IMG/VR virus record: IMGVR_UViG_3300044970_000368
Location: 1 to 62,060 of that record
Reading direction: 5' to 3' (one strand)
DNA length: 62,060 nucleotides
Origin: a virus
Lineage: Duplodnaviria; Caudoviricetes
The notes under the pieces were generated by a model that was not told the DNA's origin, did not search any database, and worked only from the letters and a program-made list of their open reading frames with translations. Positions 1,238-62,060 of the stretch are shown in pieces (position 1 is the stretch's first letter; each line of letters begins with the position of its first letter). The position numbers were made by a program, and so were the translations under genes.

Positions 1238-2431
1238 TTAAGGAATCACACAAGGTGTCGGATTGCCATCAAATGGGCAACGCTTGTAGACAATAGCGCA
1301 CACGTTTTGTGGGCGAAGTGGCTGAATAGCGCGTTGGATTTGATAGATATGCTGACCGAAGTCACCATACAGGTTACAATCGTTGTCGCGGAAGTAAGTC
1401 CACTCCAGTTCGCCCATGGCGAGTTGAGGAGCGAATTTAAATGTGCCTTCGCCAACATAGTTTTCTGGAACAAGGCGTTTGAACGCTTCACCAGCGATAA
1501 CGAACATGACTTCGTATGGAGCGGCAACCCAAGCTGGGTTGCGGCGTTGAGCGAAACCATTCGTAACGGCAGTCGAAACGATTGGGTTGACCAGAGTCAA
1601 GACACCAGCAACGTTTGCAGTGGCGCGGAGAGGCTGTTGGTCGATACCAAAAGCGAAACCACGATAGCCCATGAATTGATAACCACTGATGGACTCTTCA
1701 CCGAGCTTGAAGCTACCAGCGGAGAGATAGAGAAGGTCTTCCTTGACATCAGCGTCATTGCGGAAGGTTTCGATCTGATCGGCAGAAGCAAGAACTTGGA
1801 AGAACTCGCCATCTTTCGTTGCGAAAGGTTCGGCAAGCATCTCTTCGCGGAGGAAAGTTCCAATGCGATAGAGGGTCTTGAAGTTCATTGGCGCATCAGG
1901 CACTTTGTTAGCAAACAAGGTGTTGATCTGCTGCATATCGCCAGTAAGGTTGTTGGCGAAAGTGTCGGTAGAATCAACAACATACTTGATACCACATTGA
2001 ATCAAATACTGATAGCGGATGTCAGCGTTGATGATCTGAAGGATCGTCTTCTCAAGCGAAACTTGAGCTTGAAGATAAGAACCTTTGAAGGCAGTGCGAG
2101 CTTGCTTGACGCAAACGCGTGGGCCTGCACCACGAAGGGTCTGAAGCTGGAACTGATATTCAGTCGAGCCAACCTGATCGGGAGTAGCACCAACGCCGCA
2201 AAGCGAAAGGTCATTCACGAAGGTAGGAGAAGCGAGCGAAGCGGCAGGAACTGCCATTTCCTCAACAACGCTACGAACAACGTCCGAAACGGAAGGCAGA
2301 GTGCCACCATCAATGGAGTTGATGTAAGGGGATTTGCGAGCAAGCACACGGGCAATTTGTCCGATGATGCGGTTTACGTCTTTGCTGGCGAAGTTTTGAA
2401 CTGTCGCCAATGGAATACAATCGTTAGGCAT
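1238..2431 (-). CDS. Major capsid protein
   Basis: 397 aa, downstream of portal and scaffold, long leader, 3' hairpin, strong codon bias. Confidence 0.75.
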   Translation of the reverse strand: MPNDCIPLATVQNFASKDVNRIIGQIARVLARKSPYINSIDGGTLPSVSDVVRSVVEEMAVPAASLASPTFVNDLSLCGVGATPDQVGSTEYQFQLQTLRGAGPRVCVKQARTAFKGSYLQAQVSLEKTILQIINADIRYQYLIQCGIKYVVDSTDTFANNLTGDMQQINTLFANKVPDAPMNFKTLYRIGTFLREEMLAEPFATKDGEFFQVLASADQIETFRNDADVKEDLLYLSAGSFKLGEESISGYQFMGYRGFAFGIDQQPLRATANVAGVLTLVNPIVSTAVTNGFAQRRNPAWVAAPYEVMFVIAGEAFKRLVPENYVGEGTFKFAPQLAMGELEWTYFRDNDCNLYGDFGQHIYQIQRAIQPLRPQNVCAIVYKRCPFDGNPTPCVIP

Positions 2432-6137: not shown

Positions 6138-6141
6138 AAAT

Positions 6142-9915: not shown

Positions 9916-10497
9916 TTATTTAATAGTCATCCAACAATGTTCTGGAAGAGAAGTTGCTTGAGAAAGTTTTGATTTGTCAAAGAAAATTGCACTGCGATTG
10001 TCATGCCTCATCAACTCGCATCCACCTAATTTGCTTGACGATCTTGTATCTCGACCATTGCGGATTGAAGCAGAAATGCGTTCAGTTGCAGAAACGCACG
10101 ATCCGCATCCTCCTCGCCAATTTTTATTGTATTGACAACTCTTGCAAGTCTTGGCTCGTTGCTCGGCAAGATCATCCGAAACAAGGTTGTTAGCAGTCTT
10201 GGAGTTCAGAAGATTTTTAGCCCAAATCGTAATATCATTCAGCAAAGTTTGCTGACTTGTTTCTGGATGGATTGAAGTCACAACAACCATGTCAACTCCA
10301 TGACAAAAATTAGGCCAGTTGGAACAAATGTAGCTATTAACATCTCCTTCAACGTCTCCAACTGACAGATGATTTTCGGCGCGATAATTCTCAACTGCTT
10401 TTAACAATCCCTCGTAAGAATGCGATGTCAATTTAGCGTCAGAGTCGTAGTAGTGCCACCCTCCCGGTGGAACCATACCGATAATTACTTTTGCCAT
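9916..10497 (-). CDS. Cys-rich hypothetical protein
   Basis: 8 Cys including CKSC and CGSC. Confidence 0.7.
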   Translation of the reverse strand: MAKVIIGMVPPGGWHYYDSDAKLTSHSYEGLLKAVENYRAENHLSVGDVEGDVNSYICSNWPNFCHGVDMVVVTSIHPETSQQTLLNDITIWAKNLLNSKTANNLVSDDLAEQRAKTCKSCQYNKNWRGGCGSCVSATERISASIRNGRDTRSSSKLGGCELMRHDNRSAIFFDKSKLSQATSLPEHCWMTIK

Positions 10498-30130: not shown

Positions 30131-30760
30131 TTAGAAGTGCCGCTGCATCCACAATTCCTTCGCGTTCTCAACATCCATCGTTGGCTTGCCAATCCGCATA
30201 TTTACTGCGTTGTGCAGGTCAATACCCCACTCAAAAAATCTGTTCCAGTCTGGAGGATTTTCGCTCATCCACTCGTCAAGATGTTCCTTGCACGGACATC
30301 CATTAAACGGAATAGAATCGCGCCAATCGTTGAGCCAACCAGTCATGTTTTTTCCTGACCTGTGACGCAAGCCAAGGAGGTGAAGTTCTGCCCAGAACCT
30401 CGGCCCATTGAGAAGTATTGCTGGCACTTCGTCGCCTTGTTTGCGCTCCACTTCGTCACCTGCTCGCTGCACCCATTTGTTATGCTCGTCCCAATCAATT
30501 CCTGCCGCTTGACAAACAATGCGCTCGATTTGCGTTGCCGTTTGATGCTCGGAAACATCATTGCTGACCTCATCCTCTCGGATTCCAGCCTTGTTGCATA
30601 GCCACCCTTCTACCATCTGATGCAGATTGACGAGAAATGCGCCATCCTCGTTGCCGTAATCGGCTACAGAGCATTTAAGGTGTCCATTGGGCAACCATTC
30701 CCAATCTCCAGCCTTGACATACCGCATCGCAACTGGATCAATATTTTTAAGCGTGATCAT
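30131..30760 (-). CDS. Two-domain protein with a C-terminal Erv1/Alr-like sulfhydryl oxidase domain
   Basis: GPRFWAELH...GCPCKEHL...FFEWGIDLHNAVNMRIGKP. Confidence 0.75.
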   Translation of the reverse strand: MITLKNIDPVAMRYVKAGDWEWLPNGHLKCSVADYGNEDGAFLVNLHQMVEGWLCNKAGIREDEVSNDVSEHQTATQIERIVCQAAGIDWDEHNKWVQRAGDEVERKQGDEVPAILLNGPRFWAELHLLGLRHRSGKNMTGWLNDWRDSIPFNGCPCKEHLDEWMSENPPDWNRFFEWGIDLHNAVNMRIGKPTMDVENAKELWMQRHF

Positions 30761-30870
30761 TTGTCATCCCACCAGCAGGCAGCGGCAATGCAAAATCCAC
30801 CTGCGATAAAAGACGATATTGCAAGCACCAAAATTGTCCAAGTGTGAATCGTCATTAGAAAAACAATCCG

Positions 30871-31011
30871 TTACTTTTTCTTTTTGGATTTTGCCTTGCG
30901 TTGGACGCTGTATGCGATGGCAAGAGCCTGCTTGATTGGCTTTCCAGATTTGATTTCAGTTTTCAAATTGCGTGTGAAGCAATTTTGCGAGGCACATTTT
31001 CGTAATGGCAT
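30871..31011 (-). CDS. Small basic protein (46 aa, not in ORF track)
   Basis: MPLRKCASQNCFTRNLKTEIKSGKPIKQALAIAYS. Confidence 0.7.
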   Translation of the reverse strand: MPLRKCASQNCFTRNLKTEIKSGKPIKQALAIAYSVQRKAKSKKKK

Positions 31012-31015
31012 AGTG

Positions 31016-31216
31016 TTATTCTTCTCTGTCAAGTTCTGTGTCGAATTCAGCTAACTCATACATTTCGTCCATGTCACCATTGGCATAGTCTTCTGTTAGC
31101 TGAATTATTTTTTCTTCTGATATTTTTTTGGGGTTGTAGAATACATATTCATCTTGAACAGGAATCATCTCCCATCCTTCTGGCCCCTCTTCTTTGTCAG
31201 TTACAAGTATGTTCAT
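31016..31216 (-). CDS. Acidic hypothetical protein
   Basis: Start overlaps the stop of the giant ORF. Confidence 0.6.
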   Translation of the reverse strand: MNILVTDKEEGPEGWEMIPVQDEYVFYNPKKISEEKIIQLTEDYANGDMDEMYELAEFDTELDREE

Positions 31217-34200
31217 TTTAGTATTAATGGTATTTTTGATTTTTTCATTGTCCCAACAATGGTTTCTTTGCTGCCTTCTCTAACTGTTTTCTTGGGATGA
31301 CTGCTTGCGTAGTCAGGAAAAAGTTTAACTGGATCAGCGGGTGTTTCAAGAATAAAATTATTGGCATCCTCTGGCCCAAGCATCATCCAGTCGTAGGAAG
31401 GATGTATTCTGAATTGTGGATTTTTCAAAAATTCATCACGAAGATATCTTTCAGTGGCACTCATTTTAGCCTCTTGCTTTGGATCATCTCCAGTATAGAT
31501 AGCAAAGGCATCCATATCTTTTGATAATTGAACCGCTGCAACAATATCCAAGTTTTTACCTTTATTGAAATCCATTGACTCTAACAATCGTTGTGCAATT
31601 GAGGGAATGAATGGTATTCCACTAATCCTGTCCATTGCGCTTCCACGTTGGTTGAATGTGAATTTAGACGCTTCTTCTGCAAATGTTTTGTTTTTATATT
31701 TATTAACAATTTTTTTATACCAATCTTGATCCTTGTATTTGCTAATATGCTCATCAAATGCTTTATCGAAAGCAGCAATATTTCCTTTTGTTGCTTGGGA
31801 TTTCATTGATCCAAGTGCGCTTAAAAAATCTGAACTTGGTTTATATTTTTCAATGTTTTCGTTTTCAAATCTTTCAATTAAATTAAATTCAGATTGAGTT
31901 ATTTCATTATCTTTTAATAATTTTTGAGCTTTTTTGTATCGTTTTAAATGCTTATCTGGATTTTTTGCTCCAAGTTCAAGAATAACGTGCAACGCATCAA
32001 GTCGTTCTTGCGGTATTGATGTAGACATTGAATCAACTTCAGACATTACATCTTGAACAAATTTGCGATTGCTCTTATGCGCCTTTTCTTTCATCAACTG
32101 GATAAGTGCCATTCCAGAAGTTGTATTCTTAATAACATTTTTTGCTCTTGTAACAAAAGCGGCAGTCATATTTGCCCAAACAGGCTTAAACCCTCTTCCA
32201 TCTGGCAATTTAGCTACAGCTTGATTTGATACAAGCCAAGGATGCAATGGCCCACCCATATTTGATCCTCTTGTGTTGTGCCTGTCAGCTTCCAACATTG
32301 CAACTTGTTCTCCTCCAATTGAAGATATTCCAGCAACATTTGGAAGAACAGTTGTTTGTGGGTCTAATTCGTATTCAATAACTCGACCATCCTCTGTGGG
32401 ATTTGTCGCTATTTTAAAGTATCCTCTTTCTGGAGTTTCAGATGGCAATTTCCCATCAACAGAATGCGTGAAATCTGGTTCAATTTCTCTCTCTAATTCT
32501 TTTTTTGCTGTCTTTGGTTTTTTACCTTCGTCACGCTCTGGCATGAACTGAATGCCACTCAATGGTTGCTTCGTTGGCAACTCGCCAGCAACAGGCTTAT
32601 CGTTCTTGTCAAGAATTGTGATTATATTTTCGTCAAATACGACGTAGTTGTGAGTTGGTGCTGTCTCCGCACTTTTAATTTGTCTTTCAAGAGCAGCGAG
32701 TTCTTGTTCGCTTGAAGTTAGCCAGTCTTCAAATTGCTTCCGCATTTCCCAATCTCTTGGGTTATTTTCAAGTGTTTTTCTTAATTGCGGAACTTCTTTA
32801 AGAAGCTCGTTCCGACGATTGATGTCGGAGGCACTTGTTCTACTCATGCCGTCAAGGTAGCGTATGCCGGGAATGCCTGCTGCAAGCAATGCTTCAGATG
32901 CTCGCTTCTCTGGAGTTCCTTGCGCGCTTTCTCCAAAGCTATCTGAAATCAAAGCGTAGAGCGATCCACCTTTTGTTTTTAATTTATTTAACTGTGCATC
33001 AGCAATTTCTTTTGGAGTGCGCTCCTTGATAAGTTGTATCAATGAATCACGAACACTTTCTGGTTGCTCACTCAATGGCTTATCCCAATCAAGTAAGTCT
33101 TCGTCTTTTACATCGATATCGACTTTGTAGAGGTTGCCTTGTTCAAATGTAATTTCTTTTTTGGATTTAATTTGGTTTAACGCATCATTGAACTTTTTGG
33201 CGTATTCTAAACCACCTTGTTCAACTGTATAAGGCTCACCTTTTTCAGAATCTTTTTGCAGTGTTTTTCCAATTTGTTTTGCTCTGTTTATTCCTTGATG
33301 GTAAACTAATGAAATTGCATGGCGAATTGGATTTTTGTAATCGTCGCTTCGCAATGACATTCCTTTCCATTCATATACTCCGGGCGAATTCCAATCGGTT
33401 AGTTTCTCTTTGTATTCTTGAGCAACCTTTCTCGCCTGTGCAAAGTAAAGCCCCCATCCATACGCTTGCGCTCCTTCGCCAGTTCCGATGTTTGCCAGCT
33501 TGAACTTGTCCACTTCAAATGGAGTGCCATGATATGCAGGAAGAAAATTGATGAGTCCAGCGGATGACACTAAAGCGTTGGAGAATGGCTTGATTACTGC
33601 GTCAGCTTCTGGTTTTGCACTTGTTTGAAAATCAGCGGGTTTGATTGTGTCAGCACCTATCATCTCAGAACTTTGTGGTTTTTCCGAGATAGTAGGTTCC
33701 ATTTCCACCATGTTGCTGTGTAGAACGCCTCTATCAGCATTGAACCTGTCTTCCTCGCTGGTTGCCTCTTTAAGCTGTCCAGATTCCTCGGCAATACGAT
33801 ATGCCTCCTCACGATCTACAACGCGCCCTGTGTCTGTTTTAAATCCATAGTAACGGGATTCACGATCAGTCTGCTCATCAGGCGCATTTGGATTGGCCAC
33901 CTTGTGATTTACACCTTCACGGACTTCGCCAGTGCGAGGATCGGTGTAGGTTGCAGAAACGATGCGTTCTTGGTCTGCTGGTTTTTCTTGCCTAAAATCA
34001 ATTACAGGAATTTCAGTTATTCCAAGTTCTTTTGCTGCAATTGCACGATGTCTTCCATCCTCTTTTCCATCTTGATAAATTGCAAGAGGATCAAGTTTGC
34101 GTCCTTCTTGCATCATGTTTTTTAGATCGTCAATGTTATCCCGCGATGCTTCGTCAATTTCAAGCGGTTTTACTTGAGACAAAAACTCGTCTGGTGACAT

Positions 34201-37200
34201 TTTTACAATTTTTCCACCACGTTTTGCGTAATCTTCGTTGGAATACCACTTTCCTTTTTCTTCAATTGGATATTTGGTTTTTTGTGTAACTTCACCTTCC
34301 ATGCGTTCTGGCATGAAGTTGATTTTAGCAAATCCGTAGTTGACTGGAAGTTTTGTTGCGTTCTCGTTTGGAATCAATTCAGCAATGTGGTCAACGCGAA
34401 TTGACATGATTGTGCGATTCGGGTCTTTGCCGCGAGGATCACCTTTGCGACGAGGAATTTTTGTCCTTTCAAGATTAGTGTATTCCGTTGCCTTGTCGTA
34501 AAGATTAAGAAGATCGTTGAAAATTACTGATTTTGCTTCTGCTATTTTTGGATCAGCATCAAGGTCTGTTTTGCCGGGTTTTCCAGCTTCCCAGTTTTTA
34601 AGATACTTAACAAAATCATCAAATGTGCGCTCAAGGTTATTATCCCAGAAGCGCAAGCGTCCCGGCATACGCTCATTCCACAAGCGCATTTTATCAAATA
34701 TGCGTCCAACAGAAATTGTGGTTACAAGGAAATTGCCCTTGCTCGATAAGTGCATTCCGATTGGCACAAGATCATACATCTTTGGCGAGAATGCTTGATA
34801 CTTGCCATTGTCGTTCATTACTGCCGCATAATCCACGATGAACCTTGTTCCGTCTCCACGAACGATGGCATCGTTGATTTTAAGCATATGCTCCTTGAGT
34901 GTCCTTGGAACAAGACTTTCTGGCATATCCTTGATAGCTTGAATCTGAAGCGGAGTGAATGTTCCTCGATACGTTTCCGATCCTTCCTCAACAGGTTCAA
35001 AACGATTAGGTGTCCCGTAATCATCAGTATCCAGTGCCTCTGTAATCAGCTTTTTGCGGTCTGCATCAATTTTTTTTGCGTCCTTCGGCTCATACATGAC
35101 AGGAGTTACCCCATCTGGTTCCATGACCAAATCACGCGAGACAACAAGAGTTCCACCTTCGGGAACTTGCAATCCTTGCGCTTCCGCTGGAATGTCGCCA
35201 TATCCAGAAAGTTTCTTCATTCCAACATCAGTGCTTTGGAATGTTCCTTCCCGTGGATTGGGCGTTGTCACAGGCATTGACTCGCCAACCTGATTGCCGT
35301 CCTTGTCGAATACCTTGAATTTAAATTCTGTTTTGAATAGCGGAGAATCTTTGCCGAAACGCTCAATCAACGCAGAGTTTTTCATCATCTGCGCCTTGCT
35401 GATAGCAGGCATATCAGCTTCTTGCGCTGGAGGCGAAATTTCGCCATTTAAAGAAACTATCTGGCGCATTGCATCTCTTGCTGCCGCCATCGCTTCTGGC
35501 GGGAATTCTGCGCGTGTATTAGCGGCAGTAACAATGTCACCTCGTCCTCCAAGTCCGTAAAAACGATCAATTGCACGATCCAGCAGGTTTTTCTTTGCCT
35601 TGATCCTTGCACGATCCCACATGGCAAGTGTTGCGGAATCCAAGTCATTTGAAAGATGTCTACTGGATACTTCGCCAAGCAAGTCTGCCATGACTTCGCT
35701 TTTCATGTAGTTGGCAACCTTGTTTTCATCCAACTGACCACGGGATTCATCCCAAAGATTGTTCAGCTTTGAAAACGCTTCTCTTCCTTGCGGGTCTAAA
35801 TGGCGAAGGTATCCATCATTGAAAAGTTCAACGAGTTTTGCCTTGGAGAAAATACCAGAAGTTGTAGCCTTGATGTTTCCAGCGGCATCGCGGATTTCGT
35901 TTTGGAAAAGCATTGAACGCACTGGAGCAAGTGCTTCTTGGAATTCTGGCACAACATCCATGAAGTGCGATGTTTCGTGAACCAATGCTTCGGTTGGTGA
36001 TTCACCAAACAACTTGATGCGCTCACGAATGGAGTCTGCATTGATAACAATCGATGGTTTTCTGCGGTCAAATGCAAGCCCTTGTTGTGCGGGATTTGAA
36101 TAAAATCCAGCTTGGCTTGCCATCTGTGCAAGATCAGCGTCTGGAACATTGCTGTTTGCTGGATCATTACGCAACTTTTGATAAATTTGATCAGTCGAAA
36201 GAACATTGAACCCAACATTGTTCTGACCACTCTTCATAACACCATTGGTAATGTCTTGAAGGTTTGCGTATGTCTTCAAAAACTCCCTGCCAAATTCATT
36301 GCGCGTTTGCACATTGGCGCGTTTAACGTGATCAAGTGCAATCTTGTTTTTTTCCACTTCCGATTGAGCAAGTTTGATTTTTTTAGCATCTTCCGCTGAA
36401 CCCTTGTAAGCTGCCATCAAGTTTGCAAGGTCAGATTCACTTTCGTTCAGCTTTGTTTCTCTTGCAGAAATAGCATTATCAAAGTCAGAAATTTGATCCA
36501 AGTTTGCTTGGGTTTCTGGATCAGCTTCTTGATACCTGCGATGGATGCGAGAATCGTCTGAAATACGCTCGCGTTGCTCAATGATAGGGTCATTGCCCAT
36601 CATCTTGCCCTTGATATGCTGCAATGCGCGTCCACCAAGAGTGATTGCAAGCCCATCGGCAAGCATCTGCTTCATCTCCTCTGGATCAGCGGACTCTAAT
36701 GCTCCAGTAGCAAGAGCAAGCGTAGTTCCGTGGATTCCAGTTTTTGCATACTCAACGGAGTTGGAAAGAATGTTATCAATCGTTTTTCCTCCACGGGAAA
36801 GAATTTTAGCCTTCAATGCCGATCCTTCAGCGGATTTGCCGAGTGTCTCAAATGTCTTGCCAAGAGGTGCAACCTTGCGAGCCTCGGCAAGCTCACGCAC
36901 AAATGTTGGAATTTCAAGTCCAACCTTTGTTCCTTTCAACACTCCCCTTGCAGCAACTCCACCAATAACACCGCTCAAAATTCCAGTAACTGGAGATTCA
37001 TCAGAAACGCTATAACCAGCAATGCCGCCAAGGACAGGAGTAGTAATGTTGCCAAGAATTTTATTTACTTTTTCTGCGGCAGGTTTCCATCCCTCAATCG
37101 CTTTTTCAATCTTGCCTGCACCTTGAGCAACCGCTTCTGCTCGCTCTGTGCGTTTTTTAAGCATTTCTGCAAATTGAGATTTTCGTAATGCTTGTGCTGC

Positions 37201-38343
37201 CTTGTTGATTTCAGCAATTTCATCAGCGGATTTGCCAATGTATTTCAATCCTTTTGCGATGCCTGTTCCTGCCTTTGCAACCGCTGAAACAGCACCCATT
37301 GTTCCCATGCCAAGCTCACCGGGAAGCAAGAACTCACCAGCAATTCTTACGCGAGCATTTTCTTCTGGCAATTCAGACTCCATATCAGAAGTCAAATTAT
37401 CAATTTGCTCACGCGCCATCGCATCTTGTTGAACTTTTGCTTCTTCAACAGAAATATTGTCTCTTACTGCCAATTCTTCTGGCGATTCCATTTGCGATTT
37501 TGCAATGTATGAAAGCGCATCTTTTGCCAACGGATTATCAAGCATCCTACTATAAACAGTTGGATGTTCACGGAAGTATTCAGCTTGAGCTTGCGAAACT
37601 AACCTTCGTCCTTTCCAGCGTTCAAATCGATCTTCTGGATTTACCAAGCCAAGTTTTTCACCAGCAGCATCCGCCCAACCAAAACCACCTTCTTGTGCTT
37701 TTGCTGTTGCCCATGCTACGCTTTCTGGAATCTCAAAAGCTGGAGCCATGAACGAGTAGAATGAACTTTTAGCTTTCTTTAAGTTTTTATAAAATTCCTC
37801 ATCACTAACAGTCATGTCACTTGCTTTAATAGCATCGCGTCCAAATTCAGCAGCACCAAGAGGAACTTTTACTCCAAGTTTTGCTACATTTTTAACAACG
37901 TCAAATGCATCTCCTCCAAGATTATACCAATCTTCCCAAGATGTAGGAACTGATGGCATCTTTGACTTTTCAACCTCAAAAATGCGCCTTGATTGAGCGT
38001 CATCAAGCGGAATATCTTTGCGAGCTTGAGCTACCTTGTATTGCTCATCGTCGCTTAATGCGTTGAACAAATTTTTTTCTTCATCGTCAAGCTCGTTTGA
38101 ACGTTTATTTGAAATAAGTCCAAGGAAAATATCTCCGCTGGATTTTTGCGTTGGAGCAGGTTCTAACCACCTTTCGGCAGACTCAAAAAAATCACCTTGC
38201 GGTTCTTCAACTGGAGCTTGTTGTGGTTCTGCCGAAACCTCCTGCTTAACATCTTCAAGAACGCTTGCTGGCTTTTCTTCTTGAGGTTGTTGAGATAGTT
38301 CCGCTTCGACTTCTGCCTTGATTTCGTCAAGAATGCTTGCCAT
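31213..38343 (-). CDS. Giant polyvalent/ejection protein with metallopeptidase, ParB-like and ADP-ribosyltransferase-like domains
   Basis: HETSH; DGRHRAIAAKELG..EIPV; YHGT...GEGAQAYGWGLYF...YVVFD. Confidence 0.8.
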   Translation of the reverse strand: MASILDEIKAEVEAELSQQPQEEKPASVLEDVKQEVSAEPQQAPVEEPQGDFFESAERWLEPAPTQKSSGDIFLGLISNKRSNELDDEEKNLFNALSDDEQYKVAQARKDIPLDDAQSRRIFEVEKSKMPSVPTSWEDWYNLGGDAFDVVKNVAKLGVKVPLGAAEFGRDAIKASDMTVSDEEFYKNLKKAKSSFYSFMAPAFEIPESVAWATAKAQEGGFGWADAAGEKLGLVNPEDRFERWKGRRLVSQAQAEYFREHPTVYSRMLDNPLAKDALSYIAKSQMESPEELAVRDNISVEEAKVQQDAMAREQIDNLTSDMESELPEENARVRIAGEFLLPGELGMGTMGAVSAVAKAGTGIAKGLKYIGKSADEIAEINKAAQALRKSQFAEMLKKRTERAEAVAQGAGKIEKAIEGWKPAAEKVNKILGNITTPVLGGIAGYSVSDESPVTGILSGVIGGVAARGVLKGTKVGLEIPTFVRELAEARKVAPLGKTFETLGKSAEGSALKAKILSRGGKTIDNILSNSVEYAKTGIHGTTLALATGALESADPEEMKQMLADGLAITLGGRALQHIKGKMMGNDPIIEQRERISDDSRIHRRYQEADPETQANLDQISDFDNAISARETKLNESESDLANLMAAYKGSAEDAKKIKLAQSEVEKNKIALDHVKRANVQTRNEFGREFLKTYANLQDITNGVMKSGQNNVGFNVLSTDQIYQKLRNDPANSNVPDADLAQMASQAGFYSNPAQQGLAFDRRKPSIVINADSIRERIKLFGESPTEALVHETSHFMDVVPEFQEALAPVRSMLFQNEIRDAAGNIKATTSGIFSKAKLVELFNDGYLRHLDPQGREAFSKLNNLWDESRGQLDENKVANYMKSEVMADLLGEVSSRHLSNDLDSATLAMWDRARIKAKKNLLDRAIDRFYGLGGRGDIVTAANTRAEFPPEAMAAARDAMRQIVSLNGEISPPAQEADMPAISKAQMMKNSALIERFGKDSPLFKTEFKFKVFDKDGNQVGESMPVTTPNPREGTFQSTDVGMKKLSGYGDIPAEAQGLQVPEGGTLVVSRDLVMEPDGVTPVMYEPKDAKKIDADRKKLITEALDTDDYGTPNRFEPVEEGSETYRGTFTPLQIQAIKDMPESLVPRTLKEHMLKINDAIVRGDGTRFIVDYAAVMNDNGKYQAFSPKMYDLVPIGMHLSSKGNFLVTTISVGRIFDKMRLWNERMPGRLRFWDNNLERTFDDFVKYLKNWEAGKPGKTDLDADPKIAEAKSVIFNDLLNLYDKATEYTNLERTKIPRRKGDPRGKDPNRTIMSIRVDHIAELIPNENATKLPVNYGFAKINFMPERMEGEVTQKTKYPIEEKGKWYSNEDYAKRGGKIVKMSPDEFLSQVKPLEIDEASRDNIDDLKNMMQEGRKLDPLAIYQDGKEDGRHRAIAAKELGITEIPVIDFRQEKPADQERIVSATYTDPRTGEVREGVNHKVANPNAPDEQTDRESRYYGFKTDTGRVVDREEAYRIAEESGQLKEATSEEDRFNADRGVLHSNMVEMEPTISEKPQSSEMIGADTIKPADFQTSAKPEADAVIKPFSNALVSSAGLINFLPAYHGTPFEVDKFKLANIGTGEGAQAYGWGLYFAQARKVAQEYKEKLTDWNSPGVYEWKGMSLRSDDYKNPIRHAISLVYHQGINRAKQIGKTLQKDSEKGEPYTVEQGGLEYAKKFNDALNQIKSKKEITFEQGNLYKVDIDVKDEDLLDWDKPLSEQPESVRDSLIQLIKERTPKEIADAQLNKLKTKGGSLYALISDSFGESAQGTPEKRASEALLAAGIPGIRYLDGMSRTSASDINRRNELLKEVPQLRKTLENNPRDWEMRKQFEDWLTSSEQELAALERQIKSAETAPTHNYVVFDENIITILDKNDKPVAGELPTKQPLSGIQFMPERDEGKKPKTAKKELEREIEPDFTHSVDGKLPSETPERGYFKIATNPTEDGRVIEYELDPQTTVLPNVAGISSIGGEQVAMLEADRHNTRGSNMGGPLHPWLVSNQAVAKLPDGRGFKPVWANMTAAFVTRAKNVIKNTTSGMALIQLMKEKAHKSNRKFVQDVMSEVDSMSTSIPQERLDALHVILELGAKNPDKHLKRYKKAQKLLKDNEITQSEFNLIERFENENIEKYKPSSDFLSALGSMKSQATKGNIAAFDKAFDEHISKYKDQDWYKKIVNKYKNKTFAEEASKFTFNQRGSAMDRISGIPFIPSIAQRLLESMDFNKGKNLDIVAAVQLSKDMDAFAIYTGDDPKQEAKMSATERYLRDEFLKNPQFRIHPSYDWMMLGPEDANNFILETPADPVKLFPDYASSHPKKTVREGSKETIVGTMKKSKIPLILK

Positions 38344-38344
38344 T

Positions 38345-40075
38345 TTATCTATTTCCCAAGAATGATTCTAATGTTTCTCCGTATTGTGTTGCTGTCTGGC
38401 GAGGAACCGCTGGTTGAAATGTTGGTTGTGGAACTGGAGTAGTAGTAGGAGTTGGTTTTGGTTGTGATTTCTTTTTCAACTCTTCTTGTTGTTTAACAAG
38501 ATCAAATAATACTTTGCGCTTTGCAAGGAAGTCTGGAGAGTTTCTTTGATCTACTGGAAATTGTTCAAGCTCCATTGAAAGCGTTGAAATTTGGTCTTGT
38601 TGAGCTTGTCCTGTAGTTATTTCTTCTGGCATATCAAACTCAACAACAACTCGTTTTGGTTCTAAACCATATTCTTTTGCAAGTGAAGTATATGATTTTT
38701 TTAATTCACCATATTCATCACGTCGAGAATCGTATTGTTTTTTAGCCTGTCCAAGAAAATCTTTTCTTTGTGAATCTGAAAGGATTTGACCATTTAAAAG
38801 TTTATTATATGAAGCAACAACCCTATCTGGAACTCCACCTGCATTTTGAGCATTTGCGTATTCGCCCTCACGAACAGTTGATCCGGGATCAAGAAGTTTC
38901 ATGTAACCAAAAATCAAAGACATATCTCCAGCAGCAGAAGGTTCACCGCCAGATGTTTTAATACTTCTCCATGCGCTTTGAATTGTTTTGAAGTCTTTTG
39001 TTTGACCTACATATTCATCGCGCAATTTCTTTTCCGTTTCAAAATTAACTCCAGTGTCCGTTGCTTTTCTTGCTTCAGCTTCTGCCTTTTGTTCAGCGGC
39101 AATTTCTGATCGGCTCATTTTTTCACGAGGTTCAACACGGAAAAATGGAATTCCATTTTCGTCAACTTCTTGCGTGTATTTTCCTTGCTTGAAACCGGGA
39201 ATGTCACGATATGCCATTTGTTGGGCTTGTTCCTCTGTATCAACATCTCCAGACTCTGGCATTTGAATCTTTACTTCTTCTTTAGGTTGAGCTTTTTCAA
39301 TTGACAGCAAAGTTTTTGGAGGTGTTTTTTCAAGAACACTTGGAATTCCGTAAGGTTCAAACTTTGATTGAATTTCTTTTTCTTGTTCTGGAGAAATCAA
39401 TCCTGTTGAAACCTTTCCAAGTTGCATTGATTTAGGTTGTTCAATTGGTGCAAATGGCCCAATTCCAGAATTAGTTGATGCTGTTAAATATTCAGCAGAA
39501 ATATTTTCAAGTGCTTTTGCTTGATCTGCAATGTTTGCAGACATATCGCTTTCTTGCATTGAAATAGTTTCTGCTTCTGATGGAGTTAAATTAAAATCAA
39601 TTTTATCATCAGTTGTTTCCGTTGATTCTGGAAGCGGTTCTGTATCTATTGAACGATAAATTCTTCTTTTTGCTCCAGCGGGAACAGAACCTTCAATTCT
39701 TTTATCAATTGCATCTGCCTCTAATTCTAATTTTCTTGTTTTAAGTGATTCAATATATGGATCGTATTGTTTTGATTTAAGAGCGGCTACTTTCAAGTCA
39801 TGCGCTCTTTCAGCAAGTTTCTCCTCTTTAGCTTGCTCGGTCTTGTATTTAGCAGTAATGCCTTCAGTAATGCCTCCAACAGCAGCAAGAATGCCTTTGG
39901 AGATACCTTCAGACACAAGTTCTGGACGCGAGGATGGAATAGGAGCGTATGTCAATGGCTGAAGCTGGAATTCAGCTTTGCGAGTAACATCAAGCGGTTG
40001 CAATCCTTGCAATGCGCCAAGATTGGCAAATTGAGGTTGGAATTTGTATCCCTCGCCAGAGTATGAAATTGCCAT
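38345..40075 (-). CDS. Putative DNA ejection/internal virion protein
   Basis: Position before the giant ORF; GDMSLIFGYMKLLDPGSTVREGE. Confidence 0.6.
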   Translation of the reverse strand: MAISYSGEGYKFQPQFANLGALQGLQPLDVTRKAEFQLQPLTYAPIPSSRPELVSEGISKGILAAVGGITEGITAKYKTEQAKEEKLAERAHDLKVAALKSKQYDPYIESLKTRKLELEADAIDKRIEGSVPAGAKRRIYRSIDTEPLPESTETTDDKIDFNLTPSEAETISMQESDMSANIADQAKALENISAEYLTASTNSGIGPFAPIEQPKSMQLGKVSTGLISPEQEKEIQSKFEPYGIPSVLEKTPPKTLLSIEKAQPKEEVKIQMPESGDVDTEEQAQQMAYRDIPGFKQGKYTQEVDENGIPFFRVEPREKMSRSEIAAEQKAEAEARKATDTGVNFETEKKLRDEYVGQTKDFKTIQSAWRSIKTSGGEPSAAGDMSLIFGYMKLLDPGSTVREGEYANAQNAGGVPDRVVASYNKLLNGQILSDSQRKDFLGQAKKQYDSRRDEYGELKKSYTSLAKEYGLEPKRVVVEFDMPEEITTGQAQQDQISTLSMELEQFPVDQRNSPDFLAKRKVLFDLVKQQEELKKKSQPKPTPTTTPVPQPTFQPAVPRQTATQYGETLESFLGNR

Positions 40076-40077
40076 AA

Positions 40078-40671
40078 TTAAACGCCACCAAATTTAAGGT
40101 CAGATGAAGAAGGAAGCGAGAACATATTTGCTTTTTTAGATGCTGCTCCTGCACCTTGATTCACAAGTCCTGCCAAAGCGGGATTTACAGAGGTTGTAGG
40201 CGCATTAGAATATGTTGATGGCAGCATACCGCTTGCCGCACCAAGATTTGCAAGTGCCTCTTCACGCGATTTGTTGAAATCAAATCCACCACCAGTTGCT
40301 TGCTGTCCAGCGGTAGCCTGCGCTTGTTGAGCGGCAAGAAGTGCATTTGCATCACGGATAGACTGCATTGAACCCATTGTTGCAAGTTCTTGGCGAGCCG
40401 CTTGCTCTGCTTGCTGTTGGCGTTGCGTTCCAGCAGTAATTTGCGATTGCTTTAATGCTTCTTCTTGAGCTTTTTGAGCGGCAGCAGCTTGAGCGGCTTG
40501 TTGCGCTTGCATTTGAGACAAAAATTCCATTGTTGGATCAACTGGGGTTCCGCCTCCACCACCGCCCTTGCTTTTAGTTTTTGTTCCAAAAATAGCTTGC
40601 CGTCCATAATAACCAACAGGATTCAAAAATTTATATGGTGAATTTTTTGAAACCTTTAATGATCCACCCAT
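40078..40671 (-). CDS. Q/A-rich internal virion protein (paralog B2)
   Basis: MGG start, VDP motif, ends NMFSLPSSSDLKFGGV. Confidence 0.65.
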   Translation of the reverse strand: MGGSLKVSKNSPYKFLNPVGYYGRQAIFGTKTKSKGGGGGGTPVDPTMEFLSQMQAQQAAQAAAAQKAQEEALKQSQITAGTQRQQQAEQAARQELATMGSMQSIRDANALLAAQQAQATAGQQATGGGFDFNKSREEALANLGAASGMLPSTYSNAPTTSVNPALAGLVNQGAGAASKKANMFSLPSSSDLKFGGV

Positions 40672-40672
40672 A

Positions 40673-41134
40673 TTATGCTCCTCCGAAAGTTAAACCAGTT
40701 GTAGTTGGAACGGAGAACATATTTGAGCGTTGCTGTGTTCCTCCAGCACCAGCGTTTGCCGCCATTGCCATTGCTCCTTGTTGACCTCCCATTGTTCCAA
40801 GAGATGCTTGACGATACTGACCAGCATCACCAACAGGAGATGGCGTTGCTCCTCCAACTGGAGCAGATGCCTTTTGTGCAGCAGCCATAGTAGCTTGATC
40901 TTGCGCCTGTTGACCAACATTCATTCCACTCAATGCGCTTTTTGCAGCAGCTTCGCCTTGTTGTTGCGCCTGCATTCCAGCTTGTTGTTGAGCTTGAATT
41001 TGAGCTTGCTTTTGCCTTTCCGCTTCAGCAGCAGCTTGAGCGGCTTGCTGTTGTTGTTGCATAGCCATGAATGCAATCATTGGATCAACGCCAGAAGGTT
41101 GCTGTTGCTGTTGTTGTTTAGGTTGTCCTCCCAT
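40673..41134 (-). CDS. Q/A-rich internal virion protein (paralog B1)
   Basis: MGG start, VDP motif, ends NMFSVPTTTGLTFGGA. Confidence 0.65.
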   Translation of the reverse strand: MGGQPKQQQQQQPSGVDPMIAFMAMQQQQQAAQAAAEAERQKQAQIQAQQQAGMQAQQQGEAAAKSALSGMNVGQQAQDQATMAAAQKASAPVGGATPSPVGDAGQYRQASLGTMGGQQGAMAMAANAGAGGTQQRSNMFSVPTTTGLTFGGA

Positions 41135-41169
41135 AAATTAAAAGAATTTGTTGGTTGTTAGCACGGCAT

Positions 41170-41466
41170 TTAACTTTGTTCAAGAACTTTTTTGCGAGCT
41201 TCTTTGCAAAGTTCACTTCCGGGTTCAAATTGTCTGCAAGAATTTGGTCTATCATCGTAAATTTTGCAACAAACAAATTCTCCAACTTTGCCATCAAGTG
41301 CAATGCAACGATTATCAATTGTTTTCATCAACGGATAATCTGTCCTTACCATTTCTTTCGGAATGTTTATAGCGTCTGAACGATCTCGTCTCAATACAGG
41401 CCAAGACCATTTGAAACAACAACAAGCACCGCATGATTTGCAATCAAAATCATCTACTTGCTCCAT
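41170..41466 (-). CDS. YkgJ-family Cys-cluster (Zn/Fe-S) protein
   Basis: CKSCGACC, CIAL, CKIYDDRPNSCRQF. Confidence 0.85.
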   Translation of the reverse strand: MEQVDDFDCKSCGACCCFKWSWPVLRRDRSDAINIPKEMVRTDYPLMKTIDNRCIALDGKVGEFVCCKIYDDRPNSCRQFEPGSELCKEARKKVLEQS

Positions 41467-42290
41467 GTTACAGGTCGGAATCCAAGGTCTTCATTAACCA
41501 AATCTTCATATGGCGCAAGGTGAGAAATATTGGATATTTTAGCCTTCAATTTAGGACAATCAACATACTTTCCTTCATGCCTGTTTACGCAGTTGAAGCA
41601 AATAGGATAGAAGTCTGCATTAAGCGACTTGTCTGGATTGTTCTTCCATTTGTGGTAATCCTTAACATATCTTGTCGGGTCTGGCTGAACTGCGTTGTCT
41701 TCAAGATACTGGAAAATATTTTCATCAGTCCAATCTCGCATTGGATACAATGACATTGGCGAGTTTTCAGCGTATCGAATGTCAACCGCAAGCGGAACAT
41801 GACCTTTAATCAAATCTGTATCGCTATATTTAGTTCCGATATACACTGCTCCCCAAGGCCAGTTAAATGTGCCTGTAGGACGCTGCAAGACATCAGTAAC
41901 GCCACACAAGAAATCCTCACCTTCCTTTGGTCTTTCAGTCCCAAGAGAAAGACACACGGCAGTTCCTTGACCCCATTGGTAATACTTGATAAAATCAAGC
42001 CTTAACTCGCCAGTCTCGACATCTGGCCCGTCTGCAATCGCTATTTTGCTTGGAGCATAATCGTAAACTTCCAACTTCCACTCTTTGATCAAACGATCCG
42101 AATAAGCGTATCGCTCGCGAAATTTTGGCTCTCGATATTGAATGACAGGAAGATCAATTCCTGCGCCAAACTTGATCAAGTGCAGAAGTGCCGTGGAGTC
42201 TTTACCTCCGCTCCACAAAACCACTGCTCTGGGCCACCTTTTGTTCCATTCTTTTATTTTATGTATTGTTGTATCTATTAGTTGTTTCAT
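41454..42290 (-). CDS. PAPS-reductase-family (PP-loop) protein
   Basis: VLWSGGKDS, PMRDWTDENIFQY, C-terminal CFNC..CPK. Confidence 0.8.
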   Translation of the reverse strand: MKQLIDTTIHKIKEWNKRWPRAVVLWSGGKDSTALLHLIKFGAGIDLPVIQYREPKFRERYAYSDRLIKEWKLEVYDYAPSKIAIADGPDVETGELRLDFIKYYQWGQGTAVCLSLGTERPKEGEDFLCGVTDVLQRPTGTFNWPWGAVYIGTKYSDTDLIKGHVPLAVDIRYAENSPMSLYPMRDWTDENIFQYLEDNAVQPDPTRYVKDYHKWKNNPDKSLNADFYPICFNCVNRHEGKYVDCPKLKAKISNISHLAPYEDLVNEDLGFRPVTWSK

Positions 42291-43081
42291 TAAATAATAA
42301 TCGCTACACCTGCCAAAGCACCAATTGCAGCACCACCAGTTGAAAGCATTTGACTTTGTTGCGCGTTTGCGCTTGCGGCATTTTGTTGAGCATTTTGGAG
42401 CATCATTTGCTCGTAATTTTGCTGACTTTGCTGTTGGTTTTGATTGATTTTTTGAAGTTGTCCAAGGTTTGAATTAATCCAATCTGTTGTCGATTGATTA
42501 AGTTGCTGCGCTCCTTGCATAACATTTCCTTGATACTGCTGCATTGCTGCGAGATTTTGAGATTTTGCGGCTTGTTCAGCGGCAATAATAGACGCTGGAT
42601 CAAGACCTCCGATTGGTGCTGGAGTTTGAGCCAGATAACCCTGCTGAATCGCAAGGTTCTGTAACCTTGCCTGCCTTCCAGCTTCTGTTGCTTGATCGTA
42701 AACGGCAGACCTCCCAATTAGGCTATCAGTCCCAAGTCCAGATTGGTTCATCAATCCTTTTTTGACTGCCCAATTGTCCATCCAAGTTTTTGTTGCGCCC
42801 AAGTTAGTCGCTTCTGCAACTTTAGAACCAAGCTCATCGCGCATCTTGGCGATCTCTGGATTAAGCAAGCGATCAAACTCTCTTGAGCGTTGCAAATTAT
42901 CCATTCCGAATTCCGCTGCCTGCTGCGAAGTCTTTGCAGCATCAAATGACTGCATCAACGGAGCTTGAGATGCGTAAGATTTAAGAAGATTTGCTTGATT
43001 TTGCAACATCGCAAGTTGTCCTTGCGATTGTATATTTAAACCTTGAAGTGCTGCTGTTGAATCTGGTTTTTGATATGCCAT
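42290..43081 (-). CDS. Ejection/pilot-like protein (paralog A2)
   Basis: KPDS, APIGGLDP, hydrophobic G/A-rich C-terminus. Confidence 0.6.
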   Translation of the reverse strand: MAYQKPDSTAALQGLNIQSQGQLAMLQNQANLLKSYASQAPLMQSFDAAKTSQQAAEFGMDNLQRSREFDRLLNPEIAKMRDELGSKVAEATNLGATKTWMDNWAVKKGLMNQSGLGTDSLIGRSAVYDQATEAGRQARLQNLAIQQGYLAQTPAPIGGLDPASIIAAEQAAKSQNLAAMQQYQGNVMQGAQQLNQSTTDWINSNLGQLQKINQNQQQSQQNYEQMMLQNAQQNAASANAQQSQMLSTGGAAIGALAGVAIII

Positions 43082-43099
43082 AAATTAATGCAACATTAT

Positions 43100-44038
43100 C
43101 TAAATTGTTCCACTAATTGGAGCGTAAAATTGCCCTCCAGTAGAAGATGTTTTTGGAACATATTGTTGTCCACCATATCCAGTAATTCCTTTGCTTGCAG
43201 CTCCAGCACCTTTTGATGCCGCTCCATATCCTTGTGCCGCTCCGCTAACAATATTTCCTGCCGCTTGAGCATATGCGCCAGTCATTGCTCTGTCTGCTGC
43301 AAGATTTTGAGCTTGTTGCCCAAGCAATGCGCCTTGGTAATTCAATTTGTTTTGCATCGCGTTTTGTTGCAAATTTTGGAAGTTTGCTCCAGCTTGCGCC
43401 ATTTGATCAGAGACAGATTGATTAAATCCTCCAATGTTTCCATACATTGCATTCTGCCAATTTTGAAGTGCTTGCAAATTAGATGCCTTATTTGCTTCTT
43501 GCGCTGAAATTGATGTAGATGGATCAATGCCTCCAACCGGAGCTTGCATTTGACGAAGAATTTCTTGCTGCAATGCAAGGTTTTGCTGATCGTAGTTAGC
43601 TTTTGCTTTCAATGCAGCATCGTATGTTGCAGCTTGCCCAATAGTGGAATTGCCAAGTCCAGTTTCGTATCCTTGAATAAGACCTTGATTACGCGCCCAT
43701 TCATTCATGTAGCGAGTTGCGTTATCCATGCTTGCAAGTCTCGCAAGTTCTGCGCCTTGAGCTTGCCGCATTTTTGCTGCTTCTGGAGAAACCATTTTCT
43801 CAAGTTCACGGGAACGCTGAACATTAGCCATTCCGAGTTGAGCAAGTCGCTTTGATTCAGCGGCGGCATCATACTCCTGCTGCGCTGGAGCCATTCTTGC
43901 ATAAGCATCAAGCAATTGAGCTTGCGTTGCTTGTTGCTGTGTTTGGGCTTGCTGCATGGCAAGCATAATAGCCAAATTCCGCGAAGAATCTGGTTTTGTC
44001 AAATACTTTTTAGCATCAACTTTTTTTGCGCCACCCAT
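43100..44038 (-). CDS. Ejection/pilot-like protein (paralog A1)
   Basis: MGG start, KPDS, APVGGIDP. Confidence 0.6.
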   Translation of the reverse strand: MGGAKKVDAKKYLTKPDSSRNLAIMLAMQQAQTQQQATQAQLLDAYARMAPAQQEYDAAAESKRLAQLGMANVQRSRELEKMVSPEAAKMRQAQGAELARLASMDNATRYMNEWARNQGLIQGYETGLGNSTIGQAATYDAALKAKANYDQQNLALQQEILRQMQAPVGGIDPSTSISAQEANKASNLQALQNWQNAMYGNIGGFNQSVSDQMAQAGANFQNLQQNAMQNKLNYQGALLGQQAQNLAADRAMTGAYAQAAGNIVSGAAQGYGAASKGAGAASKGITGYGGQQYVPKTSSTGGQFYAPISGTI

Positions 44039-44040
44039 GA

Positions 44041-44427
44041 TTAAAAATTGGTCATACTATAAATTTCACGATCTGTTTTTGTCAAACCTAATTTAGTCAT
44101 AATTTCATTGCTAAAATTAGGGCGATCATTGATTAGCGGAACTCCGATATATCCGGGTTGTCCAGAAAGTTGCGAGTGTGCTTTCCAATCGCTCATCACT
44201 TGGATGACATCTTGTGGTCGCGTGTGTTGTGGGTGAAAGGCAGGATAGACGACAGGAAGAAATACATGATCAGAATATCCAAATAACTTGCCATTAGAAT
44301 AATGCGCGTAAACATTGATATTCGGATGTTCGATGATTTCATGGTCAAATTCTTGTGCAAAATCTTGCAATTCGTAGAATTCATTTGATCCATGCCTTGC
44401 TAATTTGTATTCAATTTTTGTTCTCAT
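44041..44427 (-). CDS. Hypothetical protein, possibly GNAT-like tail-region protein
   Basis: Position between nozzle and ejection genes; C-terminal MTKLGL. Confidence 0.5.
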   Translation of the reverse strand: MRTKIEYKLARHGSNEFYELQDFAQEFDHEIIEHPNINVYAHYSNGKLFGYSDHVFLPVVYPAFHPQHTRPQDVIQVMSDWKAHSQLSGQPGYIGVPLINDRPNFSNEIMTKLGLTKTDREIYSMTNF

Positions 44428-44435
44428 ATATTTAT

Positions 44436-44690
44436 TTAATTTGTTCCAACTACCACTTCATTTCCGCTCAATTCCGTTGGCAAGTATCCTTTGAACCTTT
44501 CGGCTTGCTGCTGAATAACCTTGTTCCGTGTGGCAAAATTACCGCATACAACGCAAGGCAGGCAATTTTCAGCATCAATTGGAATTGGAACAGAAGAATA
44601 AAGAGGCGCAACTGGATCATCGCCGAATGGTGAAACAAATCGGTTAGGAAAACTGGTAACTTTTACAGAAGCGTCAACGATGGATGGCAT
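44436..44690 (-). CDS. Small Cys-containing virion protein
   Basis: CLPCVVC. Confidence 0.6.
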   Translation of the reverse strand: MPSIVDASVKVTSFPNRFVSPFGDDPVAPLYSSVPIPIDAENCLPCVVCGNFATRNKVIQQQAERFKGYLPTELSGNEVVVGTN

Positions 44691-50886: not shown

Positions 50887-51306
50887 TTAATCTTCGTCTT
50901 CTTCAGTTTCGTTCTCTTCGGATTCGCCAGAAGCAGCTTTCAAGCCCATCTCGATAGCGTCTTCATCATCCTCTTCTTCCATTTCTCCATCTGGCATTTC
51001 CTCGCAGCATTCTGGCTTGATACCACAAATACATAACTCAACTGAATGACGCTTTTCAGTTTTGCCATTGCGAGTAATGTCTTCCATGCGTTCCATTACT
51101 TTCTTGTAATGGATAATTGCCATACCTTCTTTTTTGAGCTTTTCCAAACCTTTTACATTGTCAAAGTAAAGCGAAGGATAGTGATATTTTGGAGATTCGC
51201 TGGATTCATCAGAACCCATAGAAATCGTCATTCCACCAGATTTTAGTTCTTCTCCGAGATCAATGAAATCGGATTTGAGTTTAGATTTTTCTTTTGTGTA
51301 TGGCAT
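50887..51306 (-). CDS. Hypothetical protein
   Basis: CICGIKPECC, DAIEMGL, acidic tail. Confidence 0.65.
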   Translation of the reverse strand: MPYTKEKSKLKSDFIDLGEELKSGGMTISMGSDESSESPKYHYPSLYFDNVKGLEKLKKEGMAIIHYKKVMERMEDITRNGKTEKRHSVELCICGIKPECCEEMPDGEMEEEDDEDAIEMGLKAASGESEENETEEDED

Positions 51307-54262: not shown

Positions 54263-54311
54263 ATAAGATTTCGTTAAAATTGCATTATTAAAAATTAAAG
54301 TCAAACATTTT

Positions 54312-61962: not shown

Positions 61963-62060
61963 TGTGCTACCCGTTGCACCATCGTTGCCGCTCAATCCAG
62001 TAGCACCTGTTGCGCCAACATCACCTTGAACGCCCGTTGCTCCTGTTGCTCCATCAATGC
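61963..62060. repeat. Terminal direct repeat, copy 2
   Basis: Identical to 1-98. Confidence 0.95.

Follow-up and report, generated by a model that had tools for sequence, protein, structure and literature searches.

A two-domain Erv/ALR-fold homologue with a Cys-Pro-Cys motif in an uncultured tailed phage

The IMG/VR record IMGVR_UViG_3300044970_000368, assigned to the Caudoviricetes, is the complete genome of an uncultured phage, 62,060 bp in length with 98-bp direct terminal repeats, and it is this whole stretch, with nearly all of its genes on the minus strand, that we call the window. Here we describe one of these genes, an open reading frame (ORF) at 30131..30760 (-), which encodes a protein of 209 residues plus stop. 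This protein combines an N-terminal domain with a weakly zincin-like predicted fold (residues 1-110; 30431..30760 (-)) and a C-terminal domain of the Erv/ALR sulfhydryl oxidase fold (residues 112-209; 30134..30427 (-)). We hold with moderate confidence that it is a selectively maintained and dispensable two-domain enzyme, homologous to the Erv/ALR oxidases, in which the flavin-proximal CxxC has given way to an invariant CPC. The useful outcome for the window itself is a specific negative one, in that the gene appears to be optional and its presence does not account for the cysteines conserved in the core proteins.

An Erv/ALR-fold domain in a phage protein

A preliminary description of the window, made from its letters and ORFs without database searches, had quoted several sequence motifs, all of which are found in the ORF at hand: GPRFWAELH at residues 119-127, CPCKEH at 155-160, WGIDLHNAVNMRIGKP at 178-193 and HQMVE at 47-51. 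It had called the C-terminal domain Erv/Alr-like and had named a search with Pfam Evr1_Alr (PF04777), along with AlphaFold and Foldseek, as the means of checking this; the Erv fold was recovered by each of these routes. PF04777 matches residues 123-204 with 35.3 bits against a curated cut-off of 27.6 (37.7 bits in a six-frame search of the family) and is likewise present in all 33 homologues of the 209-residue protein. A phmmer search of PDB sequences retrieved human and rat ALR at ~1e-4 and pB119L of African swine fever virus (ASFV) at 4e-4, while a profile built from 18 homologues reached pB119L (3gwl) with an E-value of 7.3e-11, aligning both GPxxWxxLH and HNxVNxxxxK. The AlphaFold2 model of the protein (predicted local distance difference test score, pLDDT, of 87) opens with three strands and three helices, after which comes a domain of five helices (residues 114-206). 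With this Erv domain as query, Foldseek gave a probability of 1.0 to 3gwl, 3w4y, 3o55, 1oqc, 2hj3 and 1jr8, matches that comprise pB119L, yeast Erv1, ALR, plant Erv1 and Erv2, with a target template modeling (TM) score of up to 0.77 (3gwl). The best matches of the domain in a library of viral structures, too, are giant-virus sulfhydryl oxidases. Given the agreement of the Pfam, profile, Foldseek and viral-library matches, the Erv assignment is sound, and the C-terminal half of the protein is a true homologue of the Erv/ALR fold.

Of the five helices of the domain, the first contains W123 and H127 and the fourth the stretch H183-N184-x-x-N187..G191-K192. Across the 18-sequence alignment W123, H127, H183, N184 and N187 are invariant and K192 is nearly so, and the same motifs recur in 3gwl, 2hj3 and 3o55; we take the W..H residues of helix 1 and the HNxVN..K residues of helix 4 to be the contacts for flavin adenine dinucleotide (FAD) in Erv enzymes. 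Between the window gene and its homologues at loci L002, L003 and L004, the ratio of nonsynonymous to synonymous substitution rates (dN/dS; six pairs computed, with dS saturated in the N-terminal half of two) is 0.03 in the Erv half and 0.08-0.14 in the N-terminal half, and by this pattern of substitution the fusion gene is judged to be under purifying selection. A search for shorter relatives consisting of the Erv domain only yielded no candidate. Contamination by a giant-virus sequence was considered and ruled out, since the 62-kb phage genome that contains the gene is complete and bounded by 98-bp terminal repeats, and since the gene is syntenic in 6 genomes.

A Cys-Pro-Cys motif in place of CxxC

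The preliminary description had also pointed to a CxC in place of the CxxC, and this proves to be a constant feature of the family. The codons for C155-P156-C157 (30290..30298 (-)) occupy the position of the canonical Erv CxxC, directly before the third helix of the domain (residues 158-167), and phmmer aligns the C-E-E-C of ALR with them through a one-residue gap. The CPC does not vary among the aligned homologues (18 of 18), whose identity to the window protein is 49-93%, and it is found in 23 of 23 two-domain loci of IMG/VR (L002-L024). The remaining 35 loci of the same scan include 31 with CxxC (giant-virus bins among them), 3 with CSC, CDC or CGC, and 1 with neither spacing. The other cysteines of the 209-residue protein, C30, C55 and C83, all lie in the N-terminal domain, and none of them forms a CxxC or CxC pair. 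As a CPC stands at the start of the third helix, where the canonical redox CxxC is absent, we classify the domain as a fold homologue and a new variant rather than as a canonical enzyme. A midpoint-rooted tree of 42 distinct domain sequences, drawn from 58 loci, brings the CxC forms together in one group (support 94/75).

The best profile and structural match, ASFV pB119L (3GWL), resembles the phage domain in being a five-helix domain of about 100 residues with GPxxWxxLH and HNxVN..K; it differs in possessing a CxxC and no N-terminal domain, as against the CPC and the additional domain of the window protein. Redox-active CxC motifs are known from other thiol-transfer proteins, namely the CPC of Mia40 and the C-terminal CGC shuttle of yeast Erv2. 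These, however, face the substrate or act as shuttles, and neither is the pair next to the flavin in an Erv fold. Our literature search found no phage Erv protein or sulfhydryl oxidase, and tblastn with three queries against 50,697 GenBank phage records gave no phage match, the sole match being a giant virus filed among them. Thus, the CxC type of Erv domain seems to be confined to uncultured tailed phages.

The gene is patchily distributed and core cysteines do not follow it

The preliminary description had gone on to propose that the phage cross-links its virion through this oxidase, which can be examined by comparing relatives that carry the gene with relatives that do not. As an anchor we used the protein that it had labeled the capsid protein (397 residues, 8 Cys; 1238..2431 (-)), which ends in ...RCPFDGNPTPCVIP and has 739 homologues, the 120 listed being at least 89% identical. 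Viral contigs carrying it were scanned at the best 80 loci, of which the 19 on records of at least 57 kb were used and the 61 on shorter records left out. These 19 near-complete relatives have a CheckV completeness of 91-100% and a putative capsid protein at least 85% identical to that of the window. Five of them possess the Erv fusion gene; the other 14 have neither a PF04777 match at E<=1 nor a match to the N-terminal domain. By comparison, pB119L comes from a eukaryotic giant virus in which the oxidase is a conserved gene (PMC10598087), whereas the phage gene is present in only these 5 of 19 relatives.

All 20 genomes retain cysteines 5, 78, 107, 352, 385 and 394 of the putative capsid protein, irrespective of the Erv gene; the total in this protein is 6-8 in the carriers and 6-9 in the others. 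For the whole proteome we took the window together with 15 of the 19 records, namely the 5 carriers and 10 of the 14 non-carriers, and obtained a Cys content of 1.11 +/- 0.12% with the Erv gene (n = 6 including the window) versus 1.06 +/- 0.11% without it (n = 10). None of the 13 protein clusters present in at least 13 genomes shows a difference in Cys by presence of the gene; for instance, the mean counts with and without it are 10.7 and 10.0 for the 700-residue protein and 8.7 and 9.0 for the 193-residue protein. Besides the Erv gene itself, no gene is common to all carriers and absent from all non-carriers. Since the positions and counts of cysteines and the proteome-wide Cys content are unchanged in genomes lacking the gene, the virion-pathway reading fails the cross-genome test; the absence of any correlation across genomes was the very outcome that the preliminary description had listed as refuting it. 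Judging from these genomes, the Erv gene is an optional accessory on which the cysteines conserved in the core proteins do not depend.

Cysteines in the window's proteins

The same proposal had rested on a set of Cys-rich, often Cys-ended proteins in the structural region. The individual counts and motifs are indeed present. An ORF of 193 residues (9916-10497) has 8 Cys, with two CxxC pairs 10 residues apart; CLPCVVC occurs in the ORF at 44436-44690 and CICG..ECC in that at 50887-51306; MSCGC and SCAPNPC belong to collagen-like fiber ORFs; and a 700-residue ORF earlier labeled a 'nozzle' (44692-46794), with 13 Cys and the ending ...NPC, has a weak PHROG match to 'internal virion protein'. Both this protein and the putative capsid protein (8 Cys in 397 residues) are moderately Cys-rich; neither has a Pfam match, and the latter has no PHROG match either. 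What did not hold up is the notion of terminal cysteines in excess of chance. In the 70 minus-strand ORFs the overall Cys content is 1.14%, which is not high, and 11 of these proteins have a Cys within their last 15 residues, as against 11.1 expected, the count for the first 15 residues being the same. The terminal-Cys signal was accordingly rejected.

Moreover, several members of the supposedly structural Cys-rich set belong to metal-binding or enzyme families. A protein of 98 residues and 10 Cys is a PF03692 CxxCxxCC metal-chelating domain adjoining a gene for a protein like 3'-phosphoadenosine-5'-phosphosulfate (PAPS) reductase, another of 254 residues and 10 Cys is a metallophosphoesterase, and proteins of 336 and 371 residues belong to DUF2800 and the glycosyltransferases, respectively (Pfam). 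As to the small CxxC relays that had been suggested, no thioredoxin- or glutaredoxin-type relay is encoded: thioredoxin (PF00085) and glutaredoxin (PF00462) gave no match at E<=1 in the 62-kb genome, with control genomes positive in 14 of 14 cases.

We also observed that the CxxCxxCC gene overlaps the PAPS-reductase-like gene (41170-42290 (-) in the window). Among the 10 non-carrier genomes, 8 have at least one of these two genes and 6 have both; the two appear to form a metal or redox pair that has no connection with the Erv gene.

A sister clade couples CxC Erv genes to hyper-Cys proteins

A dedicated scan for stand-alone CxC Erv genes recovered 80 loci, many of them near-identical and counted without de-replication, which comprise 76 stand-alone CxC forms from siphovirus-like contigs of uncultured phages (L206-L281; CGC, CSC, CQC, CAC, CDC and CPC), 3 fusion-type CPC forms and 1 CxxC form. 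At 74 of the 76 stand-alone loci a protein of 433-523 residues with 31-48 Cys (7-9%) ends within 600 nt upstream of the Erv gene (e.g. L206:2550-3932 beside 4001-4327); at the other two the Erv gene lies within 72 nt (L217) or 541 nt (L279) of the contig end, and the upstream position falls outside the contig. Loci L025, L026 and L029 are further examples of the arrangement. The near-identity of many loci means that the 74 cases amount to a single conserved gene pair, or a few such pairs, and are not independent of one another. The 3 fusion-type CPC loci of the same scan have no hyper-Cys neighbor, and no homologue of the hyper-Cys protein was found in the 16 genomes of the window's group.

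The genomic context of the pair is a tail module. In L029 a tape-measure protein (PHROG E-value 7e-36) is followed by two genes, a 460-residue protein with 37 Cys and then the Erv gene. The hyper-Cys tail-module proteins belong to no Pfam family, and that of L029, the one scanned, to no PHROG. The stand-alone Erv proteins share with the fusion proteins the CxC site and a PPD(F/W)...FF.WG(V/I).LHNAVN..(L/I)GKP core, and the two group together on the tree; they differ in the lack of the zincin-like domain, in their location in a tail module beside the tape-measure gene and in their hyper-Cys neighbor. This gene pairing argues that the CxC Erv clade acts on the thiols of phage proteins. Hence, the general idea of the preliminary description, that phages deploy Erv oxidases on Cys-rich structural proteins, finds strong support in the gene association of the sister clade, but not in the phage of the window. 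As a separate observation, at locus L031 a protein of 639 residues with 62 Cys follows an Erv-like gene that has neither the CxC nor the CxxC spacing.

The N-terminal domain belongs to a large viral family

The second domain that the preliminary description had recognized upstream of the Erv domain, by its HQMVE motif, is indeed present. A HMMER search with a profile of the two-domain protein against 1.84 billion representatives returned 4,269 matches at E<=0.001 and 1,603 at E<=1e-10, and the best 150 are mostly proteins of 110-200 residues that cover only the first ~130 positions of the profile. As these matches are confined to the front of the profile, the N-terminal domain belongs to a large family whose members mostly stand alone. 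It corresponds to no Pfam family, and neither the window ORF nor 6 stand-alone members have a PHROG; its language-model look-alikes fall in clusters without a name, in which viral members predominate (77-91% for the top three). Two stand-alone members gave no tblastn match among GenBank phages, and a search for related loci with a single member likewise came back empty. The family at large (P0040-P0181) is very large, unannotated and apparently viral, and some of its members are fused to HNH endonuclease domains (P0094, P0102).

Alignments of 24 and 48 sequences of the domain show H47, E51, D69, Y86, H90 and E97 to be invariant, with a GDW motif, E48, C55 and a PG motif near-invariant. The family consensus thus reads H-E-x-x-E...C, with D69, Y86, H90 and E97 further on, and the HExxH of classical form is absent from it. 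C55 falls on one helix face with H47 and E51, in what looks like a metal site. The AlphaFold2 model of a stand-alone member has a pLDDT of 96.5, and when aligned with VIA-align it gave selecase (Z 6.0), AQ_1354/YbeY (5.4), abylysin (5.1), CapP (5.0), BepA (5.0), PprI (4.9) and Spartan (4.5), values in the middling range of this tool. With the same domain Foldseek returned nothing below 1e-3, and a profile search of PDB sequences gave no match. The modeled fold may accordingly be described as weakly zincin-like. Elsewhere in the window, a 129-residue protein with a HELIH motif (56016-56405 (-)) is possibly a small zincin; it has no Pfam match and is found only in genomes G000 and G001, and weakly in G010.

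Gene neighborhood

The positional landmark for the Erv gene is the homologue of a giant Cys-free protein of 2376 residues (31213..38343 (-) in the window): in all 6 carrier genomes the Erv gene is found downstream of it, at a distance of 1-4 genes, and stands at the head of a region rich in singleton genes. Directly upstream of it in the window is a 32-codon ORF for a hydrophobic peptide (30757..30855 (-)), whose stop overlaps the start of the Erv gene (ATGA), and which is predicted from this overlap to be translationally coupled to it. A peptide of this kind (W..IL...F..GG.C....WW; 30-32 residues) is conserved upstream of the Erv gene at 15 of the 23 fusion loci in two diverged forms, with its single Cys kept in 14 of the 15 copies and replaced by Ala in L022. 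A predicted complex of the fusion protein with the 32-residue peptide scored 0.00, which speaks neither way. Next in the window comes a basic protein of 53 residues (30871..31032 (-)), whose C13 and C18 lie in the KCASQNC that the preliminary description had cited; it is a neighbor only, and 7 of the 10 non-carrier genomes also have it, at 73-86% identity.

At 10 of the 23 loci (L005-7, L015, L017-21 and L023) a gene for a protein of 422-432 residues with 7-10 Cys lies directly upstream of the Erv gene, overlapping or abutting it (as at L160:3327-4595 in genome G013). It occurs in 4 of the 6 complete genomes with the Erv gene and in none of the 10 without it. Its language-model look-alike clusters are named 'biotin carboxylase family', two of them with GARS_A on 32-42% of their members; the protein has no sequence relative in the PDB and a Pfam match below threshold only, so that 'ATP-grasp-like' serves here as a lead and not as an assignment. 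Genome G012 (L142 and L145; 66,054 bp) was seen to carry two diverged pairs of ATP-grasp-like and Erv genes, one at each end, which may reflect a two-strain assembly or a long terminal redundancy. A scan for promoters and terminators around the Erv gene stayed at background level (11 promoter-like sites versus 8.0 expected), and the window has no tRNA genes.

Possible functions of the fusion protein

By homology with the Erv/ALR enzymes, the Erv domain would bind FAD, and the CPC disulfide would take two electrons from a substrate dithiol and hand them via the flavin to O2, with the result that disulfides would form in the otherwise reducing bacterial cytoplasm. The zincin-like domain may then bind the substrate or serve as an additional catalytic unit, by analogy with QSOX, in which a front domain is likewise joined to an Erv flavin domain (PMC12561257). 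The analogy has its bounds, in that the front of QSOX is a thioredoxin whereas that of the phage protein is weakly zincin-like (Z<=6), with no CxxC and one conserved Cys (C55). The gene would belong to an accessory cassette just downstream of the giant Cys-free gene, consisting sometimes of an ATP-grasp-like gene, often of the small hydrophobic peptide and then of the Erv gene. As to the substrate, we tentatively put forward the role of an optional helper for late phage proteins with conserved cysteines; host thiol proteins or low-molecular-weight thiols are a more doubtful choice, a partner encoded in the cassette seems unlikely, and what is left falls to a non-redox or other role.

Several observations weigh against an active two-domain oxidase. 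The CxC disulfide is strained, and we know of no Erv enzyme with a CxC at the flavin. The tree that unites the CxC forms has its root at the midpoint only, and its support is moderate. A Cys-rich neighbor (at least 5% Cys) is missing from all 23 fusion loci, which hence offer no substrate candidate. The window copy of the N-terminal domain is degraded, with E48 replaced by Q (HQMVE), and it is without the 18-residue loop holding EPGD..APY, which includes the family-invariant Y86. Further, the ORFs were delineated by a crude longest-ORF rule, and wrong starts inflate some of the Cys counts, such as that of the terminase.

Among the rival explanations, the oxidase as the core of a poxvirus-like virion disulfide pathway, which would cross-link the capsid, portal and tail proteins by way of small CxxC relays, strikes us as quite improbable. 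The putative capsid protein and the proteins of 805, 700 and 193 residues do keep 6-13 conserved cysteines across the group, the gene comes directly after the internal/structural gene block, the sister clade pairs its CxC Erv with hyper-Cys tail-module proteins, and disulfides are known in the virions of other phages (PMC13576161). However, the 14 of 19 relatives without any Erv retain the same Cys positions and counts, the proteome-wide content is 1.11% with and 1.06% without the gene, no thioredoxin or glutaredoxin fold is encoded, terminal cysteines are at chance level, and several 'Cys-rich' proteins are from metal-binding families. The poxvirus E10R - A2.5L - G4L pathway is similar in being built on a virus-encoded Erv-type oxidase for the reducing cytoplasm; it is dissimilar in that the phage has no thioredoxin- or glutaredoxin-like relay, that its Erv gene is not part of the core and that its virion cysteines show no dependence on that gene. 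The patchy, accessory distribution of the gene in a hypervariable region, as is typical of host-interaction genes, and the lack of a Cys-rich phage partner nearby would rather suit a redox weapon turned on the host. Such a weapon would oxidize host thioredoxin, glutaredoxin or small thiols, or make H2O2, and so disable host processes or defense, with the zincin-like domain targeting or cleaving a host protein; the fold neighbors of that domain include the regulatory and defense-linked zincins CapP, PprI/IrrE, Spartan and ArdC (Z 3.4-5.0). Yet all of these are weak matches (Z<=6), the family carries HExxE in place of HExxH, and the sister clade points to phage structural substrates, and we regard this alternative as rather unlikely.

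It is very unlikely, in our assessment, that the protein is a non-redox relic, in which the Erv fold would be a scaffold or dimerization module, the CPC would bind metal or be structural, and the N-terminal domain would be the active part. The absence of the canonical CxxC speaks for it, as does the size of the N-terminal family, which greatly outnumbers the fusion and functions alone elsewhere. Against this, the Erv half evolves more slowly than the N-terminal half (dN/dS 0.03 versus 0.08-0.14), the residues that correspond to flavin-contact motifs in oxidases of solved structure do not vary, and the part that is degraded in the window copy is the N-terminal domain. A bolder synthesis, which we regard with considerable doubt, takes in the entire CxC clade: the CxC Erv proteins would be specific to tailed phages and would constitute the first phage-encoded disulfide-forming machinery, with one branch dedicated to a tail protein with 7-9% Cys. 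In the branch of the window the Erv domain, fused to a zincin-like metal domain and coupled to a small peptide of the membrane, in many cases also to an ATP-grasp enzyme, would be part of a new kind of accessory cassette for redox chemistry. Its target would lie outside the virion, whether in the host thiol pool, a host protein or a product of the cassette, and would not be the capsid. Were the CxC Erv active, phages would form disulfides in the reducing bacterial cytoplasm by means of a one-domain enzyme with an altered active-site chemistry, which bears on virion stability, on the folding of Cys-rich receptor-binding proteins and on tools for cytoplasmic disulfide formation.

Other features of the genome

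The window encodes eleven Cys-free proteins of at least 120 residues, 5,272 residues in total including the 2,376-residue protein, which at the Cys frequency of the genome has P = 1.5e-12. They lie at 31213-44427, 4854-6167 and 54312-55994 (-). The homologues of five of them that form core clusters have no or almost no Cys in 15-16 genomes, with or without the Erv gene, those of the giant protein having 0-1, and such proteins may be ejected or internal proteins selected against thiols. Fiber-like ORFs at 1-1170, 53534-54304, 58493-60589 and 61060-61995 (-) carry repeats of collagen-like G-x-T/G-A-T-G-P triplets and have C-terminal ends in common, one of which occurs twice. Among the relatives, no other part of the genome varies as much as this collagen-like block.

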